Positions 32,012-49,572 of a DNA stretch of 64,000 bases are shown here, in pieces. Both the position numbers and the translations under genes were made by a program. The stretch comes from an uncultured Ectothiorhodospiraceae bacterium (GTDB lineage Bacteria; Pseudomonadota; Gammaproteobacteria; HK1), in contig CAYQVB010000021.1 of the NCBI GenBank assembly GCA_964420925.1, positions 587 through 64,586 on the forward strand. The letters are read 5' to 3'. Under the pieces are notes generated by a model. It saw only the letters and a list, made by a program, of their open reading frames with translations. It did not search any database and was not told where the DNA came from. Within the stretch, counting starts at the first letter, position 1. The number at the start of each line of letters is the position of its first letter.

Positions 32012-32439
32012 CCGTCGACTCGGCTCGCTCGCATCGACATTCGGTCGCCCCATGCTGCCCCGGGTCGGGATGGCGGGCGGCGTGCACATGAGGGCCGGTG
32101 CCCGGTCGGAGCGCCTCGTGCTCCATCCTGGCGGAAGCCCCACCAGGGATTGACGGCGGGGTCTCGATTGAGTGATCCGGTCCCCTGCCCGGTACATCGT
32201 CCGGCGCTGCGGGAGACTTCAACTCTCGGCGCACATGTTGTGGCGGCCCGCGTCTCGGCAGGGTACTTCACGCTGGCCTCTCGGAGGCTTCGCTTTTCCG
32301 GTGAAACGACGTATGCTAGCGAGCGGTGCGCTCTCGAATTCATACGCCCAAACTGCCGAATCACAGCGAAAACTGCATGTCTTTCAGTCACTTGAAGCAC
32401 AGTTCGGTCACCTCACCAACACGAGCAACGGAGAAGAAG

Positions 32440-34254
32440 ATGATCAAGAAGCTACTTCCACTCGTTGGCTCCATCGCCGTGGGTGCGGCGATAGGGGTTC
32501 CGGGGGTCGCCTCGGCCAACGATGAATTGATGGCGTTGTCCGCAGACGCCAACAACTGGGTGATGTGGGGCAGGACCTACGACGGTTCCCGCTACAGCCC
32601 TCTCAATCAGATCAACAAGGAGAACGCCGGCAACCTGCAGGTCGCCTGGACCTTCTCCACCGGGGTTCTGCGCGGACACGAAGGCGGGCCCCTGGTAATC
32701 GGTGACACCATGTGGGTGCATACCCCGGTGCCGAACAAGGTGTTCTCGATCAACCTCAACGATCAGACCATCAACTGGATGTACGTACCCAAGCAGGATG
32801 AGGCGGTGACCGTACCCGTCATGTGCTGCGACACGGTGTACCGGGGCCTCGCGTATGCCGAAGGCAAGATCTTCCTGCAGCAGGCGGACACCACCCTGGT
32901 CGCGCTCGACGCGATGACCGGTGAAGTCATCTGGAAGGCCGTGAACGGCGATCCGACCATCGGCGAGACCAACACCAACTCCCCCATCGTGGTCGGAGAC
33001 AAGGTGTACACGGGTATCAGCGGAGGCGAGTTCGGGGTACGCGGCTTCCTCGCCGCCTACAACATCAACGACGGCAGCCTGGTATGGAAGGGTTACAGCA
33101 CCGGTCCCGACGAAGAGATGCTGATCGACCCCGAGATGACCACCTCGATGCTGAAGCCGGTCGGCCCGAACTCGAGCCTCGACTCGTGGAAGGGCGACCA
33201 GTGGAAGATCGGCGGAGGCACGACCTGGGGTTGGTTCACCTATGACCCCGATCTGAATCTCATTTACTACGGCACCGGCAACCCCAGCACCTGGAACCCC
33301 GTGGTGCGCCCCGGCGACAACAAGTGGTCGATGACCCTCTTCGCACGCGATGCGGATACCGGAATGGCGCGCTGGGTTTACCAGATGACGCCTCACGACG
33401 AGTGGGACTATGACGGCGTCAACGAGAGCATCCTCGCCGACATCGAGATCGACGGCCAGATGCGCAAGGTGCTCGTGCACTTCGACCGCAACGGTTTCGG
33501 TTACACCCTCGACCGGGTGACCGGTGAGCTGCTGGTGGCGGAGAAGTACGATCCTGCCGTCAACTGGGCGACCCACGTCGACATGGAGACGGGGCGGCCC
33601 TCGGTCGTGGCGCGCTACAGCACCCGCTGGCACGGTGAGGACGTCAACACCACCGACGTCTGCCCGGCCGCGCTCGGCAGCAAGGACCAGCAGCCGGCCG
33701 CCTACTCGCCGGACACCGGCCTGTTCTACGTGCCCACCAACCACGTGTGCATGGACTACGAGCCCTTCTACGTCGACTACGTGGCCGGGCAGCCCTATGT
33801 CGGGGCGACTCTCAGCATGTTCCCGGCCGGGCGCGTGATGGGCGACGGCACCGACAACCTCGGCAACTTCATCGCCTGGGACGCGGCGAAGGGCGAGATC
33901 GTCTGGTCCATCCCGGAGGCCTTCTCGGTGTGGAGCGGCGCGCTCGCCACCGGCGGCGGCGTGGTGTTCTACGGCACCCTGGACGGGTACCTGAAGGCGG
34001 TGGATGCCGACACCGGTGATCTGCTCTACAGCTTCAAGACCCCGTCCGGCATCATCGGCAACGTGAACACCTGGGTGCACAACGGCAAGCAGTACCTCGG
34101 AATCCTCTCCGGCCTCGGTGGCTGGGCCGGCATCGGCATGGCCGCGGGTCTGGAAGGCGATACCGACGGTCTGGGTGCGGTAGGCGCCTACAAGGGCCTC
34201 TCCCAGCACACCCAGCTCGGAGGCGTGCTGACCGTCTTCGCCCTGCCGGGCTGA
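32440..34254 (+). CDS. xoxF: PQQ-dependent methanol/ethanol-family dehydrogenase, XoxF (lanthanide-dependent) type
   Basis: ATG 32440 follows GGAGAAG, and a signal peptide is present. '[21 protein letters not shown]', the vicinal disulfide 'VMCCDTV' and 'GGTTWGW' are present. '[11 protein letters not shown]' carries the extra Asp (D-Y-D, nt 33406-33414) characteristic of Ln-dependent enzymes. Confidence 0.9.
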
Positions 34255-34313
34255 GACTTCTTCGATGGGTGACGGCGGCCACGGAGGCCGCCGGATCCCT
34301 CTTCCGACTGCAG

Positions 34314-34350
34314 CGGCTGCGGCCCCTTGAGCCGCAGCCGTTTTCGTTTC
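34314..34350 (+). terminator. Rho-independent terminator/attenuator between xoxF and xoxG
   Basis: 10-bp stem CGGCTGCGGC / GCCGCAGCCG with loop CCCTTGA, followed by TTTTCGTTTC. Confidence 0.6.
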
Positions 34351-34444
34351 CGCGAGGGACTCGGGTCGAGTCCTTCCGGGAAGGTGCTTCCACTCCGCGC
34401 CGCCTCAGCTCGCGGTGCCGGTCACATGTCAAGGGGACTCGAAC

Positions 34445-34897
34445 GTGAAACCCTTCCTTCGCTCCATCCATACGGGCCTGGCCGGATCGGCGCTCCTCGG
34501 CATCTTCGCCGCGCTCCTGACCCCCTTCGCCCTGGCCCAGGACGTGCCCACCTACGAAGGTCACATCCAATGCGAGACTGAAGGCTCGCCCAGATCCTGC
34601 AAGATCGATCTCTGGCTGACCCGCGGGTACCGCGCGTTCAGCCAGTGCCAGGTCTGCCACGGGCTGGACGGCAGCGGCAGTACCATCGGACCGAGCCTGC
34701 TCGACAAGATGAAGGAAATCGACCATGCGCGTTTCATGGAGGTCGTCACCAAGGGCATGCAGGGAACGATCGGGGTCATGCCGGGTTGGGAGAACAATCC
34801 CAACGTCATGAAGTACGTCGACCAGCTCTACGCATACCTCATGGCGCGCTCGGACGGAGTGCTTCCGGGAGGCAAGGTGAAACGCTACGACAGATGA
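34445..34897 (+). CDS. xoxG: Mono-haem cytochrome c (XoxG / cytochrome cL-like)
   Basis: Haem site 'CQVCH', a signal peptide, and a position directly after xoxF. GTG 34445 has AAGGGGA upstream (the track start is 34415). Confidence 0.8.
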   Translation: MKPFLRSIHTGLAGSALLGIFAALLTPFALAQDVPTYEGHIQCETEGSPRSCKIDLWLTRGYRAFSQCQVCHGLDGSGSTIGPSLLDKMKEIDHARFMEVVTKGMQGTIGVMPGWENNPNVMKYVDQLYAYLMARSDGVLPGGKVKRYDR

Positions 34898-34907
34898 GGT
34901 ATCGGGA

Positions 34908-35783
34908 ATGAATGCGAAGACCCGAATGCCGGCGGCGACGTTCCGCGCCACGCTTGCCGCGGGGCTGATGGTGGTGACGATGGGGGGCGCGACCAGCGTC
35001 GCTGCCGAAGACGCGCGAAGCGCCTTCAAGGTCTGCGCGGACCCCCATTACCTCCCGTGGTCGAACGAAGCGGGGGAGGGCTACGAGAACCGGATCGCGT
35101 CGCTGCTCGCCGGCGAGCTCGGCCTGCCGGTCGAGTACACCTGGTTCCCGCAGCGCATGGGCTTCATCCGGAACACCCTGCGCGCCAAGGACGACGACGG
35201 AGATTACAAGTGCGACGTCGTGATGGGATTGCCCGCAGGCTACGAGCTGGCGATCACCACCGACCCCTACTACCACTCGACCTACGCCCTGGTCTACGTG
35301 AAGGGTCGAGGACTGGATGATATTCGCTCGGCCACGGATCTGCTGACACTCGATCCGGCCCAGCGTGATCGGCTTCGCTTCGGTCTCGCCGAACGAAATC
35401 CCGGCACGGTGTGGCTGGCGAAGCACGGACTGCTCGACCTGCTCCAGGTCGCGTACGCGTCGCAGCACGGCGACCCGGAGGTGCAGCCGGGGCAACTCGA
35501 GCGCGAAGACCTTCTCGCGGGGAACATCGATGTCACCATCATGTGGGGACCCATCGCGGGCTACTTTGCGCTCAGCAACCCCGACACTCCGATCGCGGTG
35601 ATTCCGATGGCTTCGGAGCCCGGAGTGCACCTGCACTTCGGAATCTCGGCCGGCGTGCGTTTCGGGCAGGGAGAGCGAAAGAACGAGCTTCAGGCCCTGC
35701 TCGACGAAAACGCGGACGCCATCGAAACCATACTCCGCGAGTACGGCGTCCCCCTGGTGGATGAGAACGGCGCGCTGATTTGA
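34908..35783 (+). CDS. xoxJ: MxaJ/XoxJ-like periplasmic binding protein
   Basis: Signal peptide. 'FKVCADPHYLPWSNE..GYENRIASLLAGELG' is the MoxJ-family N-terminus. The gene order is xoxF-G-J. Confidence 0.8.
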   Translation: MNAKTRMPAATFRATLAAGLMVVTMGGATSVAAEDARSAFKVCADPHYLPWSNEAGEGYENRIASLLAGELGLPVEYTWFPQRMGFIRNTLRAKDDDGDYKCDVVMGLPAGYELAITTDPYYHSTYALVYVKGRGLDDIRSATDLLTLDPAQRDRLRFGLAERNPGTVWLAKHGLLDLLQVAYASQHGDPEVQPGQLEREDLLAGNIDVTIMWGPIAGYFALSNPDTPIAVIPMASEPGVHLHFGISAGVRFGQGERKNELQALLDENADAIETILREYGVPLVDENGALI

Positions 35784-35991: not shown

Positions 35992-36732
35992 CTACTGGAG
36001 GTGCCAGTTGCCGTTGCGGTCGCGGCAGGCTACCCGGTAGCCCTGCTCGGTCCGGTTGCCCACCCGTACCGTCTGGTGGTACTCCCGGCACGGATTGCCA
36101 TAGTCGTCCCGACCGTTTCTGGTAACCCTCACCTCGCCGCTCGCGCTGCCGCTCAGGTTCGCGGGGTTTGTCCAGGTGGTCGCGCTGTTGCCGCCGGCAT
36201 CGAGGGCTCGGCGAATCGCCTGGCTTTGGCGCCGCTGTGAGTGGAGGTCGAGACTGCGGGATTGCACGCCGGTGTGACCGGAGGGGCCGGTTGTGTTGCC
36301 GCCATCCGCGAACTGGTTGAGAAATAGCATCCCGGCCAGCACGCCCAACGCGATACCGGCTCCCTCCTCCCAGTCGTCGTTCCGGCGGTGGCCATGGCGT
36401 CTCGGCTTCGGGTGCCCGTGACGTCGCCACTCCCGGTGGACGTGCCAGCCGAGCCCGTCGTGACGATGCTCCATCGTATGGAGGGTCCAGCGTCCCTTCC
36501 CGGATCCGCGACGGTGGTCGTGCCGGTACCAGTCGTGGCGCCAGTGGCCGTGTCTTCCGTGGTGATGCCGGTGGTCTCCGAGGTGGCGTCCGGCTCCGAC
36601 ATGCACCGTCGAAGCTCCGAACCAGGTGGCGTGGTCGTGCAGACCGAACAGTCCGGCGGCAGATGCGGGCAGGGCCGTCAAAACGACGCCCATTGCGACC
36701 ACGGTGCCAAGGAAGCTACGGTGTACTTGCAT
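35992..36732 (-). CDS. Secreted His-rich protein with glycine-zipper and C-terminal surface-antigen (17-kDa antigen/COG4520-like) domain
   Basis: ATG 36732 follows GGAGGAG, with signal peptide 'MQVHRSFLGTVVAMGVVLTALPASAAG'. By hand count there are 22 His in about 97 residues. 'GAGIALGVLAGMLF' is present. The C-terminus reads 'GNPCREYHQTVRVGNRTEQGYRVACRDRNGNWHLQ'. Confidence 0.7.
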   Translation of the reverse strand: MQVHRSFLGTVVAMGVVLTALPASAAGLFGLHDHATWFGASTVHVGAGRHLGDHRHHHGRHGHWRHDWYRHDHRRGSGKGRWTLHTMEHRHDGLGWHVHREWRRHGHPKPRRHGHRRNDDWEEGAGIALGVLAGMLFLNQFADGGNTTGPSGHTGVQSRSLDLHSQRRQSQAIRRALDAGGNSATTWTNPANLSGSASGEVRVTRNGRDDYGNPCREYHQTVRVGNRTEQGYRVACRDRNGNWHLQ

Positions 36733-36956
36733 CGACGTGCTCCTCCGAGGGCGAAGCGGGCCGAGGGGGAGTCTTTCTCGTTCTCTCTCGCCATGCCCTT
36801 TGCTATTCGCGCTCCATCTCGCAACGCGTACGCCGATTCTACGCCCTTCAATCACTCCCCGATCGATTCGTACTTTCCGCCAAAAAGCGTAAGCGGGCCA
36901 GCCCCCGGGACGACTCCTTTCGAGGTCGTGTCCGACCGAGTTCCGGACTCCGAGAC

Positions 36957-39900
36957 TCACGCCATCCGGGCCGCATGGGTGATCTTGTCCTTCGTTTTGT
37001 TCAGGTCGGTGACCACCGCGTAGCTCCAGGTGCCGAAGCTGGCCTCTGCATTCACAGCTCGAACCCATCGCTCGGCCGCCTGCTCCTTTACCTCTTTCAG
37101 AGGGTCATAGCCCTTGGTTTCCAGGATCAGGTAGCGCGGCTTGTCGCCGTTCAACCGGACGATGAAATCCGGGAGGTACTCATGCTGCTCTCCGTTGTGG
37201 AGATACGGGATCGCGAAGCCGAGGCCGGCATTCTTGACGAACGAGTGCACGAGATCGTGAGTATCCAGCCGGTAGGCCGCTGACTGCTCCCACTGTGCGG
37301 TGTCGGGAACGACTGCGTTGACATGGCTCTTGATGACGGGATAGGGCTCTCGCCGGGTCTCGAAGTCGACATCGGCCGTGGTGCCTGGACCCCGACCAGT
37401 CTCGTAGCGGGGGATCTCGGCATCCTCCCCGCTCTCGTCATCCGGTCGGATCGCGGCCGACAGCCGTTCCACCAGCAATCCGTACCACGGCGAGAGGAAG
37501 GCATCGACGGCCTGCGCCGGTTCCACCGGGCGGACTTTCTCCTCGACGTAGCGAGCAACGATGGCGGCAAGCTGGGTAAACAACACGTGAACCGGGACAT
37601 CGCAGCCCGGCTGTTGTCGATAGTCCCGAGTCAGTTCTCGCGCCATCTCGAACACCAGTTTCTGTGGGCGGTGGTCTGTGCGGTACGGATTGAGATCCAC
37701 GCGTTCGAGACGCCCCGGGCCAACGAGCGAAGGTCGTCCGGTATTGCTCGGTAGCCCCGCCTTCATCTCCACCTCGGGCGGAATGTCCATCGGGTTAAGG
37801 TTCAGCGGCGCGATACTCTCCCAGTCGACCTTGAGACGATGCCGGATGCGCTGGGTGTACCCCTCGACGCGAGGGAAACGGATCTCGAGGCCGGCCTTTG
37901 CAGGGAGCGCCCGGATCTGCCAAGTCTTCGGGGGCGGGCGTGGTCCATTTTCCCGAGTGGTCTCCTTTAGCGGCACGATCTCGAAAGGGACTCCGAAGAT
38001 CTTCGCCACTTCCTCTCCGAGCTTTCCGTCATCTCCCACGGCATAGCTGGAGCGGCGCAGACCCCGGCCGACGACCTGCTCACAGAGCAACTGCGACATG
38101 AAGGGGCGAAGCCCGACGATGTGGGTGACGGTATTGCAGTCCCAACCCTCGGTCAGCATCCCGACACTCACGATGCAGCGCACGTCCCGCCCCGGTGGAT
38201 GGAGGGGGCGTTCGAGCTTCTTTGCCAGTGCCGCAAAACCCTCCGGGTAGATGGATCGTCCCTGCACGTCCCGCGGCCAGTCGGTCTTCCCGACCGTATC
38301 CAATGTGAGGCGCATCCACCGATCTGCATCGGTCTTGGCCGCTCCACCGTCCGACTCGCGCACGACCTTCGAGTCCACCCGGATGGTTCGGATGTCTTTG
38401 TCGGTGTTGCTCAACCCCTCGATGCGGGCAGGCGGGATCCCCACCGGCGCCTCGTCTTCGGCGAGCCACCGGTAGACAACCTTCGCGAGCGCGGTGTTTT
38501 TGCACACGATAATAAAGACCGGCGGGCGGCGCTCTCCCTCGCGCTCACTCCATTCCCGGCGCAGCGTCTCCCACAGTCCGCCGAGCATTGCGATCGGCAC
38601 ATGTGCGTACTTGAGCACGGCCTCCGGCTTCACGCTGCCCCGTCTCCCACCACGCTCGGCAGGAGTCAGTCTCGGCAGGATCCATCGCCAGATGTTGAAA
38701 TAGCCGGGTATGGAGGAACCGCTCGTGTCCCGTACCGCGAGCTGCGGAATCTTGACCAGCCCGGACTCGATGGCGTCGACGAGCCCAAAGTCGCTTACTA
38801 CCCAAGGGAAAGGCCGGTTGGCGTCCTGGCCGACCCGCCCCAAGTAGTAGGGAGTGGCGGAGAGATCGATGCAGAGATTGATGCCGCGGTGCTTATGGAT
38901 GCGATCGAGGCCGTCGACCCACACCGTGGCCTCTCGATAGAACTCCTCGCTCTCGTCGGCCTCGCCGAACAGATCCGCCTCGCCCTCGTCCGGCTCCTCG
39001 TGTCGGATTCGGTATGCATGATGGGCCTCGTCATTCATGACGAGAATGTTGCGTTTTCCCCCTACCTCGCGATCGAGTACCCGCTCGATGAGCCTGGTGT
39101 CGCTCTCGACGTAACGGACCGATTCCACCGAGACCGACTTGAGGTTTCCTTGCCGATCCTGGTGCTCATTGCGAACGGAAATCAGACCAATGGCCGTCTG
39201 GCGTTCGAGATCCTCCGGTGTCAGATAGCGAATCCCCCGGGCGGTCGTCGTTTTTGCACCGATGCGGATGGTTTCCCGAGTGCGGACTTCCCGGCCGGTA
39301 CGGAGCACCTTCGCGGATTGGCCGGCAGCCTGGGCAGTCTTGGGCTCGAACACATGCCAATTGGTGACCAGCACATGTCCGCGGACAATCTGGGGCATGA
39401 GGTGCGAGGGGACCAAGTCGCGCGTCCGGTACAGGCTCGCCTCTCCACCACTTGGCTTCAGCTCTTCGAGCCGGTTGCGGATGGTTACGTTGGGACATAC
39501 GACCAGCACCACGTCCGAATAGCGTGCGTCGCCTCGATTCGAAATCTTGTTGAGAATGCTCCAGGCCGCGAGCATTCCCATGACCGTAGTCTTCCCGGTG
39601 CCCGTCGCCATCTTGCATGCGTAGCGCCGGAAGGCCTGGAATCCCTCCGCCTGCGCCTCGGGACCCGGTTCATCGAGCGGGACATCGATCCCTTGCAGGA
39701 AGTCCGCGCGCGCCTCGGTGAGAAAGATGATCGTCTCGGCGGCCTCAAGCTGGGCGAAGAAGAGCCGGTGCTTTCTCCCTTCCCGGCGCCAATAGCGCAT
39801 CAGCTCCATGGTCGTTCGAGTTACGCCCCCCTCGCCGCGCAACGCCAAGGGCCTCCACTCGGCGAGCTTCGTGCGGATCCGGTTGACCAGCTTCAATCCA

Positions 39901-40082
39901 ATGGCTATCCCGACTCCCTGGTGCTCTGATGCCATGGCACGCTCAGGTCGCCGGTAGTAGTACATGGCCGGGCGCCGGCCCGAGCGCCGCTCCGGTGGCT
40001 CGTGCTCCAGGATCCACCAATGCTCCCTGGGTTCCTCGAAAGGCGAGTTGAGGATCGGTTCAGGGACCTCGCGCGCGTTCAC
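36957..40082 (-). CDS. Type III-like restriction enzyme Res subunit (SF2 helicase + PD-(D/E)xK nuclease)
   Basis: Helicase motifs 'MATGTGKTTV', 'VMNDEAHHAY' and 'DLSATPYY'. C-terminal nuclease-like 'EYLPDFIVRL..RYLILETKGYD'. The GTG start overlaps the upstream stop (GTGA, 40079-40082). Confidence 0.85.
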   Translation of the reverse strand: MNAREVPEPILNSPFEEPREHWWILEHEPPERRSGRRPAMYYYRRPERAMASEHQGVGIAIGLKLVNRIRTKLAEWRPLALRGEGGVTRTTMELMRYWRREGRKHRLFFAQLEAAETIIFLTEARADFLQGIDVPLDEPGPEAQAEGFQAFRRYACKMATGTGKTTVMGMLAAWSILNKISNRGDARYSDVVLVVCPNVTIRNRLEELKPSGGEASLYRTRDLVPSHLMPQIVRGHVLVTNWHVFEPKTAQAAGQSAKVLRTGREVRTRETIRIGAKTTTARGIRYLTPEDLERQTAIGLISVRNEHQDRQGNLKSVSVESVRYVESDTRLIERVLDREVGGKRNILVMNDEAHHAYRIRHEEPDEGEADLFGEADESEEFYREATVWVDGLDRIHKHRGINLCIDLSATPYYLGRVGQDANRPFPWVVSDFGLVDAIESGLVKIPQLAVRDTSGSSIPGYFNIWRWILPRLTPAERGGRRGSVKPEAVLKYAHVPIAMLGGLWETLRREWSEREGERRPPVFIIVCKNTALAKVVYRWLAEDEAPVGIPPARIEGLSNTDKDIRTIRVDSKVVRESDGGAAKTDADRWMRLTLDTVGKTDWPRDVQGRSIYPEGFAALAKKLERPLHPPGRDVRCIVSVGMLTEGWDCNTVTHIVGLRPFMSQLLCEQVVGRGLRRSSYAVGDDGKLGEEVAKIFGVPFEIVPLKETTRENGPRPPPKTWQIRALPAKAGLEIRFPRVEGYTQRIRHRLKVDWESIAPLNLNPMDIPPEVEMKAGLPSNTGRPSLVGPGRLERVDLNPYRTDHRPQKLVFEMARELTRDYRQQPGCDVPVHVLFTQLAAIVARYVEEKVRPVEPAQAVDAFLSPWYGLLVERLSAAIRPDDESGEDAEIPRYETGRGPGTTADVDFETRREPYPVIKSHVNAVVPDTAQWEQSAAYRLDTHDLVHSFVKNAGLGFAIPYLHNGEQHEYLPDFIVRLNGDKPRYLILETKGYDPLKEVKEQAAERWVRAVNAEASFGTWSYAVVTDLNKTKDKITHAARMA

Positions 40083-41806
40083 GGCTCGACTCCGAACGCC
40101 CGACAGATGGCGTTGAGCTTCTCCACGACTTCAGGGTGGATCTCCTCGGGGAGCATGAGCGCCGCGATCTCGTGATAGCGGGTATAGGGTAGGCCGTGGA
40201 GTTCGGCCGCTTCAAGCAGCGGGGGAAGGAGTTCCGTGCGTGCCTTGGTTCCGTTCAGGAGCAGGTGTTCACCGAGCGGATCTTCGACGACGCCTAGAGG
40301 AAACTCACGGCGCATGTACGCGAGCATATCTTCGACGTGCGGCGCGGCGGCATCCGCTCCAATCACCGACTCGACAAAGCAGGATAGTGCATTCGGGTGT
40401 ACGAGGTAGCTTTCGATCTCATAGCGCCGCCAGTGAAGCCGCTGCAAGCCGATACCCGTGATCTCGGTATCCGGAACCTCCGGCCGCGCATCCCGGTCGC
40501 GAAGCTCGACTCCGGGAAGCCCTTCACGCACGAGCTGCAAGGCGTCGTAATGATCGCGAGCCCGGATCCCCGGACGCCTCTCCTGGGCCTGGAACACCAG
40601 AGGTTTCCACATCAACTCAGTGGTGAGCAATCCGGTCGCCCGGTGTTCGAGCGTCGCCGCCCACGCGCGCAGGATGTTGATGTCTGTGTAGTCCTCAACG
40701 TAAAGAACGCCGCGGACTCCCAGTGCTTGCATGACGTCCGCATTGCTGAGTACCCGGAGGGAGGTAATCACCCGGCCACGCTCTTCGTTGTCGGCTACCA
40801 TCCTCGGTTCGTGAAGCATGACACACAGCTCGCGTGGCTCGACGGAATTGATGACCACTTCGGAATGGGTCGCAACAATGAGCTGTGAGTGTTGCCGGGC
40901 GGCTACCGCCCGCAACTCGTGATAGATAGCGTCCTGCAGGATCATGTGCAGGTGTGCGTCCGGCTCGTCCAGGAGCAGTACTGAACCTTCGCGGGTATTG
41001 AGGAAGGTAAGCAGCATCAACACCTGCTGGAACCCGCTGCCCGCGCTCGCGATGTCCAGCGACGGCCCACCATCGGTCATCGTGTATTCGGCCCGGATGT
41101 ACGGCCCACCAGAATCGGGAGGCAGTAGTATGTAGCCGAAGAGTTTCATGATGGAGCTCTGAAGCGCGGCCCATGTAGGTTCGTTACGGTGCGCCGTTGC
41201 GAGCAGATTGCGTAGCACTTCACCGGGGCGACCGAGACCGAGGAGCCGCTCTATCAGTGGCGGCTGAAACAGCGGCTCGTCCGTGCTCAAGCCCGTCATC
41301 GGTGGCACGAATACCGCCTGGAGATCGAGTTCCCGCAGCGTTGCCGCCGGGGCATCCCATCGGGGTCGGACATAGATCTGTTCGGTGCTGTCCGCAATGA
41401 ACTCCATGGTCACCGACCAGCCCGCGTCGTGCTGAACCTCGATCTGAATCTCCTGCCCATGCTTGCGATATCCACGGTCCCTCCATAGAAGGTCGAAGCT
41501 TCTTAGCGGAACCGTGGTGAACGCCTGCCGGGCGATTGGAGCGCGGGTGTATCCCTGGCGCGGATTGAAGTCGTTGAGCTCGCGCCAACGCTGCAAGGCG
41601 AGCGACCATGATGCAATCGCCTGGAGCACCGTCGTTTTGCCGGTGTTGTTGGGACCTGCCAGCACCACGTGCCCGGGCAGATGGAACTCAACTTCGCTGA
41701 AACGCTTGAAGCCGCGGATGCGGACCGTGCGGATCACGTCCTGGCCTCCGAGACGGGTTTGGCGTACATCAACCGGTATCGCGGGCGTCTCGGGCATCGG
41801 ACGCAT
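40079..41806 (-). CDS. ABC-type (RecF/SMC-like, AAA_15/21) ATPase fused to a Toprim-like (DUF4435/OLD/RloB-like) C-terminal domain
   Basis: Walker A 'GPNNTGKT', signature-like 'SAGSGFQQ', Walker B 'LLLDEPDAHLH' and H-loop 'VATHS'. C-terminal motifs are 'VLYVEDYTDINIL', 'ELRDRDARP' and 'WRRYEIESYLVHPNAL'. Confidence 0.75.
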   Translation of the reverse strand: MRPMPETPAIPVDVRQTRLGGQDVIRTVRIRGFKRFSEVEFHLPGHVVLAGPNNTGKTTVLQAIASWSLALQRWRELNDFNPRQGYTRAPIARQAFTTVPLRSFDLLWRDRGYRKHGQEIQIEVQHDAGWSVTMEFIADSTEQIYVRPRWDAPAATLRELDLQAVFVPPMTGLSTDEPLFQPPLIERLLGLGRPGEVLRNLLATAHRNEPTWAALQSSIMKLFGYILLPPDSGGPYIRAEYTMTDGGPSLDIASAGSGFQQVLMLLTFLNTREGSVLLLDEPDAHLHMILQDAIYHELRAVAARQHSQLIVATHSEVVINSVEPRELCVMLHEPRMVADNEERGRVITSLRVLSNADVMQALGVRGVLYVEDYTDINILRAWAATLEHRATGLLTTELMWKPLVFQAQERRPGIRARDHYDALQLVREGLPGVELRDRDARPEVPDTEITGIGLQRLHWRRYEIESYLVHPNALSCFVESVIGADAAAPHVEDMLAYMRREFPLGVVEDPLGEHLLLNGTKARTELLPPLLEAAELHGLPYTRYHEIAALMLPEEIHPEVVEKLNAICRAFGVEP

Positions 41807-41870
41807 GTCCTCGCAATCGTCCTTGAGCAGGCCAGAGGTCCACGCAACGGAGTAGCTCTGCCGAAGAGGA

Positions 41871-44633
41871 TCATGTTTTCGTTTCGGAGAGCGACTTGAC
41901 CACCAGCAGTTCGTTGCCCCGGTCGTCGATGACTTTCACCGCGATCTGGCCGTGTTCCCCTGACTGAAACGGGGCGCTGAGCGTCCCGGACAGGTGTGCC
42001 CACACGCTGTCCTCGAACTCGCCCCGGAGCGAACGCTTGATGCCCTCCCACGCCGATGTCCGGGGAAAGAACGCCTGACAGACGTGAAAGCAGAGTCCGT
42101 TATAGTCCGTGTCCAGGAACCACGCCGGGACATCGCGGCCCTCCCGGTGGTCGGAATCCATCTCGATTGGATCGAAAACATCGAGGCCGAGCAGCTCGAC
42201 TTGGTAGTCATGTTCTCCAGATCGCGTGATGCGTACGTCGGGTAACCCGCACACCGAGAAGATTTGACTCGAGCGGAGGTTGCGAAGCAGGTCACCCATG
42301 ACGAGGTCCATGCTCGCCTGGACGTAGGTGGCGGCCACCCCTACCGCTTCCTCGCAGTCGTCTATCAGGCGCCTCGCGTCGGGTTGGATGGCAAACCCGA
42401 TGACGTAGAGGTGCTCGTATCCCTTGGCATACGCCTCGCGCGCCGCTTCGAACACGAGGGTTTGGGAGACCGCACCATTCTCAGAGCCGAAGACGATCGC
42501 GACCGCGTTGTCTCCCTCGCCCTCGACTTGCGCCTCGGCGGAGAGGCTCATCGTTCGAGCAGGTCGACGGATCTTGTCCAAGCTAACCGTTCGGCCGCCT
42601 CCAAGATGCAGCACCGGCGAACGCCGCAGCACCTCGATCATGCGTTCGACATGGTCGGCGTGGGTCACCGTGGCGGCCACATCTGCGGAATCCTCCTCGC
42701 CGTCCCCCTCCCAGTCCACCGGGGTCGGTATGGTCGCCTCTACGCAGAACGGCCCGCTTACCCGGGTCACTCCGTCCTCGGCTTCAGGCCGATCGACGAG
42801 GACTTCCTCCTTTGGCGGTTCATTGTTGGCTATGGACTTAAGTGTGACATGCGGCACGATCCCGCCTACCTCCTCTCCCTTTGCGCTTTGCCGGCGCCGA
42901 TAGTGAAAACCTCCCGCGGGACCTCGAGCCGGATCCTGGAGCGCATAGAACGCGAATGTGCTGGTGAGCAGTCGTTGCCGTGCAAGGGCGATTGGAACCC
43001 GGGAGGTGTCGGTGGTGATCCAACGACGCCCCCACTTCTCCGCGCAGTACGCCGTCGTCCCCGAGCCGCAGGTGGGGTCGAGGACGAGGTCGCCCGGATC
43101 GGAAGTCATCAGGAGACAGCGTTCGACGACCTTGGGGTTCGTCTGGACGACGTAGGTCTTCTCATCGGTAAAGCTGCCGGTGAGGGTATCCGTCCAGAGA
43201 TTGCCTCGTGTCTTGTAGGGGAAATCCGAGGGGAAACGCCGGTATTGCAAGCTGTTGGCCGCGACGTGAATCCGTCCCGTGGCCGCGAGACGTTCGAGCC
43301 CATCGGGATAGTTGGCTGCCCAATGACGATTGGGATTAGGCACGTAGACCTTACCCTCAAACTTGAAAGGTTGAGGCTCCCGTGGTGGGCCTGGAGATTG
43401 CATGTTGTCCGGTTTGTAAAGACGACCACCTTCTGGCAACTGCACTTCCTGGCGCTTCTCCGCCGCCGTTAAGCCACGATAGCTTCCGTCCGGGAGCAGC
43501 ACCCATCGGGCATTCCCCTCGCCGAGGACCACCGGCTGCTCCTCGAACAGCTTCCGTACCTTCAGTCGCTCCGGATCTCGTGCGTACCACAGCAGGAAGT
43601 CGCCCAGCGTCGCGAGGGTCCGCGTCGGGAAACCTGACGTAGTCTGGAAACTGATCTGCGAGACGAAGCACTCCGCCCCGAACACTTCATCGAGTACTTC
43701 GCGGACATGGTGCAGGTTGGTGTCCGACATCTGGACAAAGATGCTCCCCGACGGATGGAGCAGATCCCGTGCCAGCAGCAGCCGGTCACGGAGATAGGTC
43801 AGGAACGAGTGCACGCCCAGCTCCCAGGTGTCCCGGTACGCTTGCACCATCTCCGGTTCGCGCACCATGTGCTGGTCGTCTCCGTGCGTGACGTCGCGCT
43901 TGCGTACGAAGGGCTGGAAGTTGGAGCCGAACTTCACAGCGTAGGGCGGATCCATATAGATGGTCTGCACCTGTCCGCCCAAACCCTCGTAGCGAAGCAG
44001 GGAGTTCATCACCACCAGGGAATCGCCGAGGATCAGCCGGTTCACCCACCCGTTCTGGTGTTCGTAGGCCTTAAGCAACCGGTCTCGGATCGACAAGTCA
44101 CTCTCGCCGAAGAGATCGAACATGTTGATCTGGCGGTCCCGGGTATGACCTTTCAGCGTCTCGAGGATCGCGGAGGTCGAGAGACGCTCGTGAACGAACA
44201 GGGGCAGAGTGGGAACGTCGAAGGACAGCCGTTCGGCCTTCCCTGCCCAGTTGAGGAAGGGCTCGGAGAGCGCGTTCAGCTCGGCGGCGTCTTCCCGGGC
44301 CGAGGCGAGCTCCTGCTTGATCTCTGCAAGGCTGTCCGGGAGGATGCCATCGTTTCCGCTATGTCCGGCGGCGACGATGGCCGAGAGCTTCTCGATGCGA
44401 TCTACCAGCGTGACGAGCTTTGCTTCAGCCTGCTCGCGCGCGGGATTCTGCTGGTCCCAGTCGAGAGCCGGAGCAAGAGAAGAATCGTAACGATAGGTAG
44501 CCGGCGGCTTCTTCTTGCGGAACTGCGCCTGCGTGCCGATATCCGGCCGGAGCAACGCGCTCGCTTCGGGATGCGCGTAGCTCTTGGTGCTCCGTTCCCT
44601 CCTGGCACGAACTTTCGTCTTCTTCTTTGCCAC
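41871..44633 (-). CDS. Type III-like Mod DNA methyltransferase (beta-class N6A/N4C amino-methyltransferase), 920 aa
   Basis: Motif IV 'IYMDPPYAVKF' lies upstream of the AdoMet motif I 'VLDPTCGSGTTAY'. The N-terminus is basic ('MAKKKTKVRARRER'). Confidence 0.85.
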   Translation of the reverse strand: MAKKKTKVRARRERSTKSYAHPEASALLRPDIGTQAQFRKKKPPATYRYDSSLAPALDWDQQNPAREQAEAKLVTLVDRIEKLSAIVAAGHSGNDGILPDSLAEIKQELASAREDAAELNALSEPFLNWAGKAERLSFDVPTLPLFVHERLSTSAILETLKGHTRDRQINMFDLFGESDLSIRDRLLKAYEHQNGWVNRLILGDSLVVMNSLLRYEGLGGQVQTIYMDPPYAVKFGSNFQPFVRKRDVTHGDDQHMVREPEMVQAYRDTWELGVHSFLTYLRDRLLLARDLLHPSGSIFVQMSDTNLHHVREVLDEVFGAECFVSQISFQTTSGFPTRTLATLGDFLLWYARDPERLKVRKLFEEQPVVLGEGNARWVLLPDGSYRGLTAAEKRQEVQLPEGGRLYKPDNMQSPGPPREPQPFKFEGKVYVPNPNRHWAANYPDGLERLAATGRIHVAANSLQYRRFPSDFPYKTRGNLWTDTLTGSFTDEKTYVVQTNPKVVERCLLMTSDPGDLVLDPTCGSGTTAYCAEKWGRRWITTDTSRVPIALARQRLLTSTFAFYALQDPARGPAGGFHYRRRQSAKGEEVGGIVPHVTLKSIANNEPPKEEVLVDRPEAEDGVTRVSGPFCVEATIPTPVDWEGDGEEDSADVAATVTHADHVERMIEVLRRSPVLHLGGGRTVSLDKIRRPARTMSLSAEAQVEGEGDNAVAIVFGSENGAVSQTLVFEAAREAYAKGYEHLYVIGFAIQPDARRLIDDCEEAVGVAATYVQASMDLVMGDLLRNLRSSQIFSVCGLPDVRITRSGEHDYQVELLGLDVFDPIEMDSDHREGRDVPAWFLDTDYNGLCFHVCQAFFPRTSAWEGIKRSLRGEFEDSVWAHLSGTLSAPFQSGEHGQIAVKVIDDRGNELLVVKSLSETKT

Positions 44634-44663
44634 GTCTACTCCCGCCCCTCCCGCATCATCTCT

Positions 44664-46112
44664 TTACCCGTCGCGATGGGATAAGTCACTGACGATCCAA
44701 GTCGCGTCCGCTGACGGATCACGAATAGCTCTGTGACCCACCATGTAGCAGTACACGCTGGTAGGTATGAAGTCGAAAAGAATCTCTTCGGGACCCTGAC
44801 CAAGTCTTGCCGACTGAGTGCGCGTGGTAACGAGAGGTGTAACTCCGGAATGCCGAACTGCGAATTCCGTCAGGCCCCTCAGTTCGCCTGATCGCTCGAC
44901 ATACCGATCTGACCACTTGACGTCTACACACCAAGCAGGTCGCTGGCGGCCGTCGAGATGCACAATATCCACCTCACCGCTTCGCCACCGTGCATAGTGG
45001 AGATCAATATCGGAGTGAAACCACTGAGCGAAGACAGCAGTCTCGGCAAGCGGGCCCATTTCCTTGTCGTCCTTAGCTACCGGACCGAACAACGCGCAAC
45101 GCAGCGCTGGCGTAGTGACGTACACCTTGAATTGATTGGCGCGCTTGAAACGGCGGGCGTTGTGATCGATACGGTGGACCACCTTGATGAGGAATGCGGC
45201 CTCCAGATATTGCAAGTAACGCTTGAGCGTTGGCTTGGTCACGCCGGATTGCTGAGACAGTGCCTCCAGTGACACTTCTCCGGCGGTGTTGAATGCCAAC
45301 GTCATGAACAGTGCGTTGAGCTCCTGCACATCCTGGATGCCATAAAGGCTCGGGAGGTCGCGCAGCAGGACCTTCTCAACGATGTCGGTGCCGATGTAAC
45401 GGGCGGAATCGGAACGGATAGCCGGAGACGAGATGGATTCCGGATAACCTCCAAAGTTGACGTAGTCGACAAAGTGGCGGTTCAGCTCTCCGATGTCGCT
45501 TACTGTGTATAGGCCGTCTGGCTCCTCGCGTTCGACCAAGCCCTCGATACCCTGCAAGTCGAGGTATTCATAAAAGGTCAATGGCGGCAGAAGGAAATCC
45601 GTGAAGCGACCGGCTCCCGATTCGATGCTCTTGAGCCGGAGCGCTGCCGCGGCCGAACCGGACACCACGCATCTGGTGCCCGGGTGAGCATCCACGAAAG
45701 CTTTGAGGTGGCGTTCCCACTCGGGCAGATACTGAATCTCATCCAGGAACAGCACTTGGGGACCATTGGGGTTTTCGCTCGACCGGCGAATCTCCTCCGC
45801 GGCTTCCTCGATGGAGAGTCGGGTGTAGAGCGGCTGATCGAGCGAGATGTAGCCGAGGTCCTGAGGTGCGTATTCACCGCCTTCGAGCAAGCGCGCGATA
45901 ACGTGATGTAGCAACACCGTCTTCCCAACGCGGCGCGGGCCCATGAGCACCACCGCCCGGCGCACTCCGGTTTCCTCCACGAGACGTGCGAAGCGCTCAA
46001 AGTACGCGCGCGGCTTCAGCTCTCGATAGTCGTCGCGGATTCCCCCGCCATCCCACCAAGGGTTTTCGGCGCGGATGCGATGGCGCCGCTGACTCGAGGA
46101 GATCTCCCGCAT
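44664..46112 (-). CDS. COG1373-type AAA+ ATPase (AAA_14 + DUF4143-like C-terminal nuclease-fold domain)
   Basis: Walker A 'GPRRVGKT', Walker B-like 'VLFLDEIQ', wHTH-like 'LKRYLQYLEAAFLIKVV', and C-terminal 'GEVDIVHL..WCVDVKWS' (D..D-x-K). Confidence 0.8.
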   Translation of the reverse strand: MREISSSQRRHRIRAENPWWDGGGIRDDYRELKPRAYFERFARLVEETGVRRAVVLMGPRRVGKTVLLHHVIARLLEGGEYAPQDLGYISLDQPLYTRLSIEEAAEEIRRSSENPNGPQVLFLDEIQYLPEWERHLKAFVDAHPGTRCVVSGSAAAALRLKSIESGAGRFTDFLLPPLTFYEYLDLQGIEGLVEREEPDGLYTVSDIGELNRHFVDYVNFGGYPESISSPAIRSDSARYIGTDIVEKVLLRDLPSLYGIQDVQELNALFMTLAFNTAGEVSLEALSQQSGVTKPTLKRYLQYLEAAFLIKVVHRIDHNARRFKRANQFKVYVTTPALRCALFGPVAKDDKEMGPLAETAVFAQWFHSDIDLHYARWRSGEVDIVHLDGRQRPAWCVDVKWSDRYVERSGELRGLTEFAVRHSGVTPLVTTRTQSARLGQGPEEILFDFIPTSVYCYMVGHRAIRDPSADATWIVSDLSHRDG

Positions 46113-46448: not shown

Positions 46449-47642
46449 CTACCCCTTCACGCACACGACCTGCCTGAGCGCGTGCACGACCTCGACCAAG
46501 TCATCCTGATTGGCCATTACGGTTTCGATGTCCTTGTACGCGGCCGGGATCTCGTCGACAACTCCCGCATCCTTCCGGCACTCGACCCCGGCCGTCTGCC
46601 GGACCAGATCGTCCGCGCTGAACGCCTTCTTCGCCTGTGAGCGCGACATCCGGCGTCCCGCGCCGTGGGCGCAGGAGCAGAAGCTCTCCTCGTTGCCCTT
46701 GCCACGCACGATGTAGGACTTCGCCCCCATCGAGCCCGGGATGATCCCGAGCTCGCCGAGGCCGGCACGGATCGCACCTTTCCGAGTGACGTACACATCG
46801 ATGTCGAAGTGGTGCTCGCGGACCACGTAGTTGTGATGGCAGTTGACCGCGTGCTCCGTGACCTCGAATGGCGGGAGGGTGACATGCAGCGCATCGAGAA
46901 CGAGCTCGAGCATCTGAACGCGGTTCTCGGAGGCATAGTCCTGCGCCCAACCGAGCGCCTGGACATAGAGGTCGAAGGACTCCGTGCCCTCGCGCAGGTA
47001 GGCGAGGTTCTTGTCCGGCAGCTTGACGTCGAGCGCGAGCATCTCCTCGCGGGCGAGTGCGATGAAGTGACGACCGATCCGATTTCCGATCCCTCTCGAT
47101 CCCGAGTGGAGCATCACCCACACGCGGTCCAATTCGTCGAGGCAGACCTCGATGAAGTGGTTGCCGCCTCCGAGCGTGCCGAGCTGGCGTTGCCACCCGT
47201 CCCGGGTTTTCATCATCGTGGCAAGGGCCGACACCCGGTCGACGAGGGCATCGTAGCCCTTCTTCAGACGCTCGACCCCGCTCGTTCGTACATCGCGTTC
47301 GTCGTGCATGTGGAAGCCGACCGGCACCCGCGCTTCGATCTCCGATCGAAGGGTGCTGAGCGAATCCGGTAACGCGATTGCGTCGATCGAGAGCCGGGCG
47401 GCGATCATCCCGCAGCCGATATCCACTCCGACCGCAGCCGGAACGATCGCGTCGCGAGTCGGAATCACCGAGCCAACGCTCGCCCCGATTCCGGGGTGTA
47501 CATCCGGCATTGCCGCCACATACGGGTACACGAAGGGCAAGTGCGCGACGTGTTCGAGCTGCTGCACGGCATTATGTGTGACATCCTCGGTCCAGATGCG
47601 CACCGGCACCGGGGTGTGCTCGATGGTCCGCTTGACGGTCAT
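46449..47642 (-). CDS. rtcB: RNA 3'-phosphate/5'-OH ligase RtcB
   Basis: 'DVHPGIGASVGSVIPT', 'GVDIGCGM', 'GGGNHFIE', 'HSGSRGIGN', 'NCHHNY' and 'SCAHGAGR' are all present. ATG 47642 gives 397 aa. The track extension to 47855 was rejected. Confidence 0.9.
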   Translation of the reverse strand: MTVKRTIEHTPVPVRIWTEDVTHNAVQQLEHVAHLPFVYPYVAAMPDVHPGIGASVGSVIPTRDAIVPAAVGVDIGCGMIAARLSIDAIALPDSLSTLRSEIEARVPVGFHMHDERDVRTSGVERLKKGYDALVDRVSALATMMKTRDGWQRQLGTLGGGNHFIEVCLDELDRVWVMLHSGSRGIGNRIGRHFIALAREEMLALDVKLPDKNLAYLREGTESFDLYVQALGWAQDYASENRVQMLELVLDALHVTLPPFEVTEHAVNCHHNYVVREHHFDIDVYVTRKGAIRAGLGELGIIPGSMGAKSYIVRGKGNEESFCSCAHGAGRRMSRSQAKKAFSADDLVRQTAGVECRKDAGVVDEIPAAYKDIETVMANQDDLVEVVHALRQVVCVKG

Positions 47643-47854
47643 CGCTTCATATCCTCTCGTCTTCGGCTCTCGACGATACCCGGACAGCTTCGATCGCCAG
47701 CGAAATGCGCAAAACCAACGAGGTATGGGAAGTACCATATGGGCCGGAATCCGGAAAGCCCGGTCCCGGCTGCGCCGGCCCGGAGTGCCTTTCCCGAGAC
47801 GGGCGGGGGATCCGTTCCCCGCTCCGTCCCGGGAAGGCTTGGCGTGCCGCTGCA

Positions 47855-49009
47855 TCAGTCGGCCTTGATCCCGATGCGCACGGTGTCGTGGAGGACGCCG
47901 TCCAAACCGCCGAAGACGGTCAGACGCTCGACCTTGTCCGCCACCTTCTCTAGCGCCTCCAGCTCCTTGAGGCGCATGAGGGTCGGGTTCTCGTCCATGA
48001 GCCGGGCCGTGTTGAGCAGCGAACGGGTCGCCGCCGTCTCTTCACGGCGCTTGATGACGTTGGCCTGCGCGACCTTCTCCGCCTCGACGACCTGGTTGAA
48101 GAGCTCGCGCATGTCGCCGGGGAGGATCAGGTCCTTGACACCCACCCCCGTCACCTCGATTCCGTGCACCGCGACCTTCTCGCACACGTAGTCGAGAACC
48201 GACCGGTCGAGTTGTCCCTTGTTCTCGAGCAGCGCGTCCAGGGTGCGGGTACCGACCGCCTGCCGGAGACCGAACTGGAGCTCTCGGTAGAGGTAGTCGG
48301 TGAAGCGATCCAAAGTGCTCCGCGCCTTCACCGGATCCGAGACCCGGTACGACGCGGTCATGTTCACTCGAATCGTCACCTTGTCCCGGGTCAGGATCTC
48401 CTGGCCCTGGACCTCCATCGGCTGCAGGCGTTGGTCGATCTGCTCGACCTTTACGGTCCGGTTGAAGGTCCAGTACGCGTACCGCCCCGGATCGAGCGTG
48501 CGCACGAGCCGGCCGTCCACCAGCAACAGGCCGAGGTGGCGGTCGGCAACCTCGGCCACGTACACGTAGCGATAGCGTAGCTTGGCGAGCGCCGACTCCT
48601 CGCGGGGCCGCGCGAGCAACGACAGCACCGGCTCCGAGACTTCCGGATCGGCGTCGAGGTCGATCGGATCGACACGCACCTCAGCCGCGTCCTTCCAGTA
48701 GTACCGGCGCGAGCCCGGCGGCAACACATCGGTGAGAACACCGTCTACGTAGACCAGTCCCGCCTCGTCGTCGCCGAGACGCACGATGATGAAATGGTCC
48801 TCGAGGAGCGCCGGCACCGAGCGGGCCAGCACGTCCAGGTGCGGGTGCTGGAACTCAACCCGCGAAATGTCGTGGATCTCGACCTCCACTCGACGGTGCG
48901 GATCGGCGATCCGGAGTACCCCCGGTGCGAGCACGGCCTGAAGCAATCGGTCCCGAAAGAGCAGGCCCCGCTCGTGCCGGGCAATAACGATACGTTTGTA
49001 GGGATACAT
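47855..49009 (-). CDS. SPFH/band-7 (slipin-like) domain protein with an extra N-terminal domain
   Basis: 'EILTRDKVTIRVNMTASYRVSDP', 'GIEVTGVGVKDLILPGDM' and 'AEKVAQANVIKRREETAATRSL' are typical SPFH and coiled-coil segments. Confidence 0.85.
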   Translation of the reverse strand: MYPYKRIVIARHERGLLFRDRLLQAVLAPGVLRIADPHRRVEVEIHDISRVEFQHPHLDVLARSVPALLEDHFIIVRLGDDEAGLVYVDGVLTDVLPPGSRRYYWKDAAEVRVDPIDLDADPEVSEPVLSLLARPREESALAKLRYRYVYVAEVADRHLGLLLVDGRLVRTLDPGRYAYWTFNRTVKVEQIDQRLQPMEVQGQEILTRDKVTIRVNMTASYRVSDPVKARSTLDRFTDYLYRELQFGLRQAVGTRTLDALLENKGQLDRSVLDYVCEKVAVHGIEVTGVGVKDLILPGDMRELFNQVVEAEKVAQANVIKRREETAATRSLLNTARLMDENPTLMRLKELEALEKVADKVERLTVFGGLDGVLHDTVRIGIKAD

Positions 49010-49495: not shown

Positions 49496-49498
49496 GAG

Positions 49499-49572
49499 TT
49501 CCGAAGGAGGGAATCGAACCCTCGACCGCGTGATTATGAGTCACGTGCTCTGTCCAACTGAGCTACTTCGCT
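49499..49572 (-). tRNA. tRNA-Met(CAT)-like gene with two mismatched terminal acceptor pairs and no encoded CCA (possibly defective)
   Basis: Minus strand reads AGCGAAG-TA-GCTC-AGTTGGACA-GAGC-A-CGTGA-CTCATAA-TCACG-CGGTC-GAGGG-TTCGATT-CCCTC-CTTCGGA-A. The D, anticodon and T arms are canonical. Pairs 1-72 (A/A) and 2-71 (G/G) do not pair. Confidence 0.6.

Follow-up and report, generated by a model that had tools for sequence, protein, structure and literature searches.

A fused ABC ATPase-Toprim gene of the OLD/PARIS type at the mod-res junction of a type III-like restriction-modification locus

Introduction

The PARIS system combines an ABC ATPase of the AAA_15/AAA_21 type with a DUF4435-type Toprim nuclease (Rousset 2022, PMC9122126; Burman 2024, PMC11464382). 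It senses Ocr, and AriB cleaves tRNA-Lys (PMC11464382, PMC12707154). A fused form, ariAB, exists, and the published detection rule sets a threshold score of 27 for DUF4435 (PF14491) (PMC9122126). Genes of the PARIS type, for an ATPase and a DUF4435 protein, have also been described within the BREX system StySA, where they are embedded between pglX and pglZ (PMC9009780). Here, an ABC ATPase with a fused Toprim domain was found to be encoded in a 64,000-nucleotide (nt) stretch of DNA from an uncultured Ectothiorhodospiraceae bacterium (GenBank contig CAYQVB010000021.1, positions 587 to 64,586 of the forward strand; the whole stretch is referred to below as the window), at the junction of the mod and res genes of a type III-like restriction-modification (R-M) locus.

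Single polypeptides made up of an ABC ATPase and a Toprim domain are known as OLD nucleases, which have a Glu after β-1 and DxD after β-3, and whose classes are told apart by context: class 1 is stand-alone, class 2 goes with UvrD/PcrA, class 3 with a retron and class 4 with GajB. Embedding in another system predicts defence function, and HEC-04, a fused ATPase-TOPRIM, is a validated defence gene (bioRxiv 10.1101/2024.01.29.577857); the 'guilt-by-embedding' survey dealt with Hma, BREX, DISARM and type I R-M systems, and type III-like systems were outside its scope (Payne et al. 2024, bioRxiv 10.1101/2024.01.29.577857). PrrC is a further example, guarding the type Ic R-M system EcoprrI (PMC3710099). 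In our literature search, no PARIS, OLD or DUF4435 gene was found described inside type III loci.

Organization and conservation of the locus

Four co-directional genes had been reported in an initial annotation of the window, made from the sequence alone, and open reading frames (ORFs) were found on the minus strand at exactly those coordinates: res (36957-40082; 1041 amino acids, aa), a middle gene (40079-41806; 575 aa as the longest ORF), mod (41871-44633; 920 aa) and a gene for a COG1373-type ATPase (44664-46112; 482 aa). The gaps of 30 nt (44634-44663) and 64 nt (41807-41870) and the GTGA overlap between the stop codon of the middle gene and the GTG start of res (40079-40082, minus strand) were all present in the sequence, as was every motif quoted for Mod and Res. 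As Res matches NF046055, Mod matches MTase_III, the middle protein has homologues and the fourth protein carries AAA_14 and DUF4143, these four are real genes and not chance ORFs of high-GC DNA. An exact-sequence look-up of the ATPase, Res and COG1373 proteins of the window returned no names. The guanine-plus-cytosine (GC) fraction is 0.59-0.62 over 39-47 kb of the window and 0.66-0.70 in the flanks, a dip that fits an acquired island. A consensus scan detected no promoter, and no terminator at any gene boundary of the locus, and the operon structure is therefore deduced from gene spacing.

Related loci, given L-numbers, were fetched for comparison. Res had 227 relatives in the GTDB species set, from which 80 loci were fetched, and 75 of these contained both Mod and Res. 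An ATPase-Toprim gene lies between the two in 49 of the 75, while Mod abuts Res directly in 11 and the junction holds other content in 15. When metagenome contigs were instead anchored on the C-terminal domain of the middle protein, the next gene downstream was Res in 59 loci and the next one upstream was Mod in 50, and only three homologues of at least 42% identity (L082, L098, L146) were without Res in this search. The linkage of the middle gene to this Mod/Res clade, suspected from the window, is thus strongly conserved in both directions.

The loci with the ATPase gene span at least 13 phyla, judged by record titles, and Res identity across these phyla is 62-84%, which indicates wide horizontal transfer of the unit. 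Pairwise distances of Res correlate with those of the ATPase (r = 0.916) and of Mod (r = 0.939). The typical layout in the family is Mod, a 4-nt overlap, ATPase/Toprim, a second 4-nt overlap and Res, the ATPase/res overlap being present in 45 of 48 related loci. The conserved unit is composed of three genes, Mod-ATPase/Toprim-Res, which are inherited and horizontally transferred together. In the plasmid collection only distant ATPase matches were found (≤27% identity), no Res match was found in the phage collection, the viral contig scan gave one weak match (31% identity), and the viral fold library BFVD gave nothing meaningful.

A sister clade, 35-40% identical, occurs without this Mod/Res pair, and of its members at least three (L150, 173-11712; L151, 1207-12258; L156, 4197-10535) are embedded in another R-M-like system, with a gene for an SNF2 helicase with NOV_C/DUF3883 on one side and a DUF1156 methylase gene followed by DUF499 on the other; Anantharaman et al. 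2013 (PMC3710099) gave a description of this SNF2/NOV_C-DUF1156-DUF499 class. Further members of the sister clade, and members of the wider family (L147-L149, L152, L158), are located in unrelated neighbourhoods. In a single case, L082, a 62% identical homologue (6044-7696, plus strand) stands without Mod or Res, and next to it is a gene for an ATP-dependent RNA ligase (7739-9049, minus strand; PF09414 and the oligonucleotide/oligosaccharide-binding (OB) fold of PHA02142).

The ATPase-Toprim protein

The longest ORF of the middle gene starts at ATG 41806. The probable start, however, is the GTG at 41737 (residue 24 of the ORF), giving a protein of 552 aa, because GGAGG is located 7 nt upstream, homologues begin at 'MIRTV', gene callers give 552 aa for close relatives and, in 29 of 46 related loci, the stop codon of Mod overlaps by 4 nt a start codon at exactly this position. 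With this start the distance from the Mod stop to the ATPase gene in the window is 133 nt (41738-41870, minus strand) and not 64 nt. Such a spacer is atypical for the family; it recurs in L164 and L165.

The initial annotation described the middle ORF as ABC-ATPase/Toprim-like, and both halves of this description were borne out by Pfam and PADLOC, by profile matches of relatives, by a domain model and by fold matches. The middle protein has thousands of homologues, some of which carry the NCBI name 'ATP-dependent endonuclease'. Its N-terminal half matches AAA_21 (67.2 bits, cut-off 27) and AAA_15 (63.5 bits, cut-off 32.1) in Pfam, and Pfam together with sequence motifs places the ABC ATPase domain at residues ~24-336 (40799-41737, minus strand). 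Walker A (GPNNTGKT) is found at residue 51, a signature-like SAGSGFQ at ~254, Walker B (LLLDEPD) at 277 and the H-loop (THS) at 313, and G56/K57, G258, D280, P282, D283, H285 and H314 are invariant or nearly so among 41 diverse homologues. In PADLOC the ATPase half was matched by NsnB (2.9e-22, the best), AriA (2.5e-20), AriAB (1e-16), PtuA, GajA and Old. Assignment to Menshen (NsnABC) was rejected, as NsnB matches the ATPase half only and no DUF262 (NsnA) or NsnC gene is adjacent. MADS was rejected as well, since MADS3 scored 44.7 bits against a cut-off of 420 and the partner genes mad1-8 are absent.

The remainder of the protein, residues 338-575 (40082-40795, minus strand), comprises a DUF4435-like Toprim nuclease domain and a C-terminal helical domain, as deduced from an AlphaFold2 (AF2) model, Foldseek and the profiles of relatives. 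A first full-length model, built on 33 close homologues, was poor, with a pLDDT (predicted score in the local distance difference test) of 61 and the Toprim region unresolved, and was replaced by a model of the domain only (residues 330-575), for which an alignment of 121 diverse sequences gave a pLDDT of 95.2 and a predicted template modelling score (pTM) of 0.90. The top Foldseek matches of this model were the C-terminal Toprim regions of class 2 OLD proteins (6njv, 6nk8, 6njx and 6njw; probability 0.97-1.0), followed by PARIS AriB (8ux9_A, 8v46_D) and Ts OLD. In the model, β-1 (366-370) is followed by E371 and β-3 (432-436) by D437-x-D439; these residues are conserved, as are D375 and E463/E465 in 'RYEIE[SN]YL' after β-4. 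Because Toprim is defined by a Glu at the end of β-1 and DxD after β-3 (PMC12065111), the positions of the conserved acidic residues are those needed for Toprim catalysis. Among relatives, Pfam DUF4435 was matched by 4 of 41 diverse family members (best 7e-6), and PADLOC AriAB and AriB by 19 and 5 of 29 diverse C-terminal domains (best 1.3e-8 for AriB). A profile of diverse C-terminal domains found no chain in the PDB. A search of 1.84 billion representative proteins with the C-terminal domain returned 330 relatives, mostly fused proteins of ~540-590 aa.

By architecture, an ABC ATPase and a Toprim nuclease domain in one chain, the middle protein is OLD-like or fused-PARIS-like. As in the ATPase of PARIS, AAA_21 and AAA_15 match the window protein above their Pfam thresholds, the AriA and AriAB profiles match it, and AriB is among its top structural matches. 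DUF4435, however, was not detected in it, and by the published rule it is accordingly PARIS/OLD-like, a distant relative of fused PARIS that would work in a similar way, and not a member of PARIS. It has the composition of an OLD nuclease, including the Glu after β-1 and the DxD after β-3; its C-terminal fold is best matched by the catalytic regions of class 2 OLD, its ATPase profile reaches Ts OLD (6p74), and the PADLOC profiles for Old and GajA match its ATPase half. None of the four OLD class contexts fits, the gene being placed between Mod and a Res of the helicase-nuclease type of superfamily 2 (SF2).

The Mod and Res proteins

Mod is a type III-like β-class DNA methyltransferase. It was matched by PADLOC MTase_III (PDLC03632, 5.4e-140) and by Pfam N6_N4_Mtase (89.4 bits), and its best relatives in the PDB are the type III Mods 6k0w and 4zcf (EcoP15I). 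The order of its motifs is that of β-class N6/N4 methyltransferases, motif IV preceding the FxGxG-like motif I: IYMDPPYAV is at residue 225 (DPPY at 228-231) and the S-adenosylmethionine (SAM)-binding DPTCGSGTT at 519. From these motifs Mod is predicted to methylate host DNA, and DPPY suggests N6-adenine as the modified base.

Res is a full-length member of the 'BPTD_3080 family restriction endonuclease' model of NCBIfam (NF046055; 1015.8 bits, curated equivalog cut-off 800), residues 7-1036 being aligned to positions 2-968 of 970. The ResIII family of Pfam was matched with 28.7 bits. The helicase motifs include motif I (Walker A), ATGTGKT, at residues 159-165 (39588-39608, minus strand), NDEAHH at 350 and LSATP at 407, and the nuclease motif, PD (971-972; PDF at 971) followed by E988-x-K990 within LILETKG at 985, occupies 37113-37172 (minus strand). 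In an alignment of the window Res with 79 relatives, GxGKT, DEAH, SAT, QxxGRGxR, PD and ExK were conserved in all 80 sequences, PD and ExK being invariant. Judged by its motifs, Res most likely cuts unmodified incoming DNA with its own C-terminal PD-(D/E)xK nuclease.

The initial annotation of the two genes as a type III-like pair agrees with these results, since the top structures for Mod are type III and, in Res, a C-terminal PD...ExK comes after motifs of an SF2 helicase. The pair shares with canonical type III R-M systems (EcoP15I, EcoP1I) the gene order mod-res, a β-class Mod with DPPY ahead of the SAM motif and with type III Mods as its closest PDB relatives, and a Res whose motifs place an SF2 helicase at the N terminus and a PD-(D/E)xK nuclease at the C terminus. 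It also differs from them: Mod is ~280 aa longer than EcoP15I Mod, Res is placed by NCBI in the separate family NF046055, and type III Res profiles gave short, weak matches only, PADLOC REase_III (4e-9) reaching residues 632-677 (~50 residues) and NCBIfam PRK15483 scoring 15.7 bits against a cut-off of 564. A sequence search of the PDB found no solved-structure relative of Res, and no paper mentioning BPTD_3080 was found in the literature.

The mod-res junction

The content of the mod-res junction varies among the relatives, and the junction is an exchange slot, in which other members hold different second-line or toxin-like cargo. A split AAA_21 ATPase with DUF4276, itself a domain of the Toprim superfamily (PMC12065111), is present in L048 and L070, and an ATPase with a 200-aa protein in L080. 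COG1373-type ATPases are found in L059, L071 and L074, a DUF5131 protein with a 355-aa protein in L053 (8143-10004), a HipA-like protein with DUF3037 in L047 (8427-9943), a HEPN protein in L079 and IS200 transposases in L027 and L034. The slot further contains a 345-aa protein without a Pfam match in L054 (8967-10004) and L056 (8922-10004), uncharacterised cargo in L064 (8691-9308) and L036 (9224-9970), 205-aa and 248-aa proteins being among the slot contents, and several genes without any match. By embedding logic, the uncharacterised cargo consists of candidate defence genes.

In the Res tree the alternative cargo is nested inside ATPase-bearing clades, L048 standing beside L035, L038 and L039, L047 beside L067, and L070, L071 and L074 beside L069, which points to replacement in situ. 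The Res helicase motifs and PD...ExK are intact in all three classes of loci, that is, with the ATPase, with Mod and Res adjacent, and with other cargo. The stop/start coupling to res, pointed out in the initial annotation, could be taken to mean that the gene is functionally integrated. This argument was considered and dropped: Mod itself overlaps the res start by 4 nt (ATGA) in 8 of the 11 direct loci, and unrelated cargo does so in L048, L053, L054, L056 and L070, so the overlap is a property of the slot and not of the ATPase gene. On this evidence the middle gene resembles accessory cargo, long carried by and transferred with an R-M pair that is sufficient by itself, more than it resembles a catalytic subunit.

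Discussion

The embedded ATPase-Toprim protein is read here, with a probability of about 0.6, as a second-line abortive-infection 'guardian' inside a type III-like R-M system. By analogy with PARIS, OLD, Gabija, PrrC with EcoprrI and the fused HEC-04, we infer its trigger, nuclease substrate and abortive-infection outcome as follows. Mod and Res would form the first line, the ATP-dependent restriction of the BPTD_3080 family, and the ATPase part would keep the Toprim nuclease inactive. The ATPase may sense a phage cue, for example an anti-restriction protein or the loss of R-M activity, whereupon the Toprim nuclease activity would be let loose on tRNA or DNA and the infected cell would stop growing once restriction had been evaded. 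Co-transcription with mod and res would hold the two layers together. A nuclease regulated by an ABC ATPase, placed inside an R-M operon and presumed to be a second line, is a feature common to PrrC and the guilt-by-embedding candidates (HEC-01, HEC-04, PDC). The PADLOC profile HEC-01A matches the ATPase half of the window protein (1.7e-13), and the same catalogue is the source of PDC-S01, the label of the neighbouring COG1373 gene. The effector of PrrC, however, is HEPN and not Toprim as in the middle protein, and HEC-04 gave no match on the C-terminal domains of the middle-protein family.

Several points weigh against the guardian role. The C-terminal domain of the window protein had no match in Pfam (E ≤ 1) or PADLOC (E ≤ 0.1), and only by way of its relatives is it tied to DUF4435 and AriB. 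Structural similarity is moderate, with template modelling (TM) scores of 0.39-0.51, E of ~3e-3 and 15-18% sequence identity to OLD. In PARIS the nuclease is freed from the ATPase; in the covalently fused protein this release step cannot apply, and activation must take place otherwise, by a conformational change or by oligomerisation. PARIS is, moreover, often phage- or satellite-borne, while viral contigs and plasmids almost lack the present family, and the window clade, unlike PARIS, is nearly restricted to its type III-like R-M host. Lastly, a near-obligate association and a co-divergence as tight as that of Mod would fit an integral subunit too.

A more specific form of the guardian reading is possible and is put forward tentatively. 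In it, the ATPase-Toprim clade may have co-evolved with one type III-like enzyme as its dedicated guardian, which physically monitors Mod/Res and fires its nuclease when they are inhibited, following the logic of PrrC and EcoprrI with a fused Toprim effector; the junction with its paired 4-nt overlaps would then be a recombination cassette site at which second-line cargo is exchanged between lineages.

It is rather unlikely that the ATPase-Toprim protein is instead an integral third subunit of a three-component R-M enzyme, serving in DNA loading or clamping like SMC/Rad50 or providing a second strand-cleavage activity. Such a role would agree with an association that is near-obligate in both directions, with a divergence that tracks Res about as tightly as that of Mod does, with 4-nt overlaps that flank the gene on either side in most loci (Mod/ATPase 29/46, ATPase/Res 45/48) and with a small, specialised family (330 representative clusters among the 1.84 billion proteins). 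Yet Mod is coupled directly to Res in 11 of the 75 loci and unrelated cargo, including IS200 and HEPN, fills 15, cargo is swapped between close Res relatives (L048 versus L035, L038 and L039), all Res motifs are kept with or without the ATPase, the 4-nt res overlap belongs to the slot, and L082 has a 62% identical homologue without Mod or Res. The same heterogeneity of the slot (IS200 in L027 and L034, HEPN in L079, HipA-like with DUF3037 in L047, DUF5131 in L053), together with the unrelated contexts of the wider family (L147-L149, L152, L158), could mean that the junction is a mere permissive site of recombination or insertion and the ATPase-Toprim gene a selfish, toxin-like or addiction passenger unrelated to R-M function. 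This is quite improbable, however, for one specific clade fills the slot in about two-thirds of the family and in at least 13 phyla, it has co-diverged with Res and Mod, and precise 4-nt overlaps on both sides have been kept over deep divergence. Members of the sister clade are again found inside a helicase/methylase R-M-like system, which speaks for a functional affinity to systems of this kind.

The initial annotation had proposed a composite defence system of four genes led by the COG1373 gene. The protein matches AAA_14 (103.6 bits) and, as a tail of nuclease fold, DUF4143 (75.5 bits) in Pfam, and near its full length it matches the PADLOC candidate PDC-S01 (PDLC04787, 6.6e-53; residues 35-419 against profile positions 13-377 of 412). 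An obligate system COG1373-Mod-ATPase/Toprim-Res would be consistent with the co-directional genes, the 30-nt gap between COG1373 and Mod without a predicted terminator, the same four-gene order in four related metagenome contigs (L162-L165; ATPase 84-90% identical) and the recurrence of COG1373-type genes in the slot (L059, L071, L074) or nearby (L001, L042, L064). It is nevertheless highly improbable. Of the GTDB loci, 54 extended 2.5 kb or more upstream of Mod; none of these had a COG1373 relative directly upstream, the only upstream matches being two weak ones (23-26% identity) at 1-3 kb in L001, and no flanking gene family was common to more than five loci. Because L162-L165 also keep the chromosomal flanks of the window as far as they reach (Band_7, RtcB, a 245-aa protein, cytochrome c and PQQ dehydrogenase), their shared order reflects common descent and not independent association. 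In L163 (6784-7236) and L165 (6650-7102) a DUF6508 gene (150 aa) that is absent from the window separates COG1373 from Mod, so that the region upstream of mod is variable too, and the COG1373 genes in the slot are just 26-27% identical to that of the window. The four-gene proposal is therefore not supported, although its three-gene core is. The COG1373 gene is retained only in close syntenic relatives, and the most plausible reading makes it a candidate defence gene of its own, specific to the lineage and sharing the island but outside the conserved unit. In L164 it is preceded by a helix-turn-helix (HTH) gene.

As to novelty, the initial annotation was right in part. No literature was found on such a gene inside a type III-like locus, but the embedding of ATPase-Toprim modules is itself established (PMC9009780; bioRxiv 10.1101/2024.01.29.577857), and the parts are not wholly new, as Res has a curated NCBIfam model and the COG1373 gene is already a PADLOC candidate. 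What was not found in the literature is the BPTD_3080 type III-like host, a near-exclusive, co-diverging ATPase-Toprim clade, and the mod-res junction as a slot for cargo exchange. If the guardian role is true, the principle of an embedded second line, known from type I R-M, BREX, DISARM and Hma, would be widened to include a type III-like family, and if the dedicated form of it is true, type III-like systems would have their first example of it. One Mod/Res family in three states (no cargo, co-evolving ATPase-Toprim, swapped cargo) across at least 13 phyla offers a clean natural experiment, and makes testable whether a guardian senses the inhibition of its own R-M partner or a free phage protein, and how a covalently fused PARIS-like nuclease is switched on. 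The slot also supplies a short list of candidate defence genes, such as those for the 345-aa protein of L054/L056, DUF5131 with the 355-aa protein, and DUF3037 with the HipA-like protein, among others. Where an annotation pipeline labels the locus simply as 'type III R-M', a probable abortive-infection layer would go unnoticed.

Neighbouring genes

Directly upstream of the island, at 46449-49009 (minus strand) of the window, are genes for the RNA ligase RtcB (421.7 bits in Pfam) and for a Band_7/SPFH protein, and beyond them a tRNA-Met gene (49498-49572, minus strand). L163 and L165 share the Band_7-RtcB flank, of which L164 has only RtcB. The position of an RNA-repair ligase next to a possibly tRNA-cleaving nuclease is suggestive; across the relatives, RtcB was no recurrent neighbour of the Mod/Res family.

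Directly downstream of res is a His/Arg-rich ORF without a Pfam match (35992-37068, minus strand). The gene in this position is called as 245-246 aa in L081 and L163-L165; the 358-aa reading of the ORF runs over the res stop and is probably too long. A 602-aa ORF antisense to res (38121-39929, plus strand) is very likely a high-GC artefact, because the Res frame on the minus strand has full-length homology.

Further downstream (32326-35783, plus strand) lie genes for a pyrroloquinoline quinone (PQQ)-dependent alcohol/methanol dehydrogenase (642-aa ORF), a c-type cytochrome and a 291-aa protein, a flank conserved in L163-L165. The PQQ dehydrogenase cluster appears to be of XoxF/MxaF style and hints at a methylotroph-like host. 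In L164, a gene matching DruA and DDE_Tnp_1_assoc (21217-21514), ~6 kb past the island, may represent further defence or mobile content.

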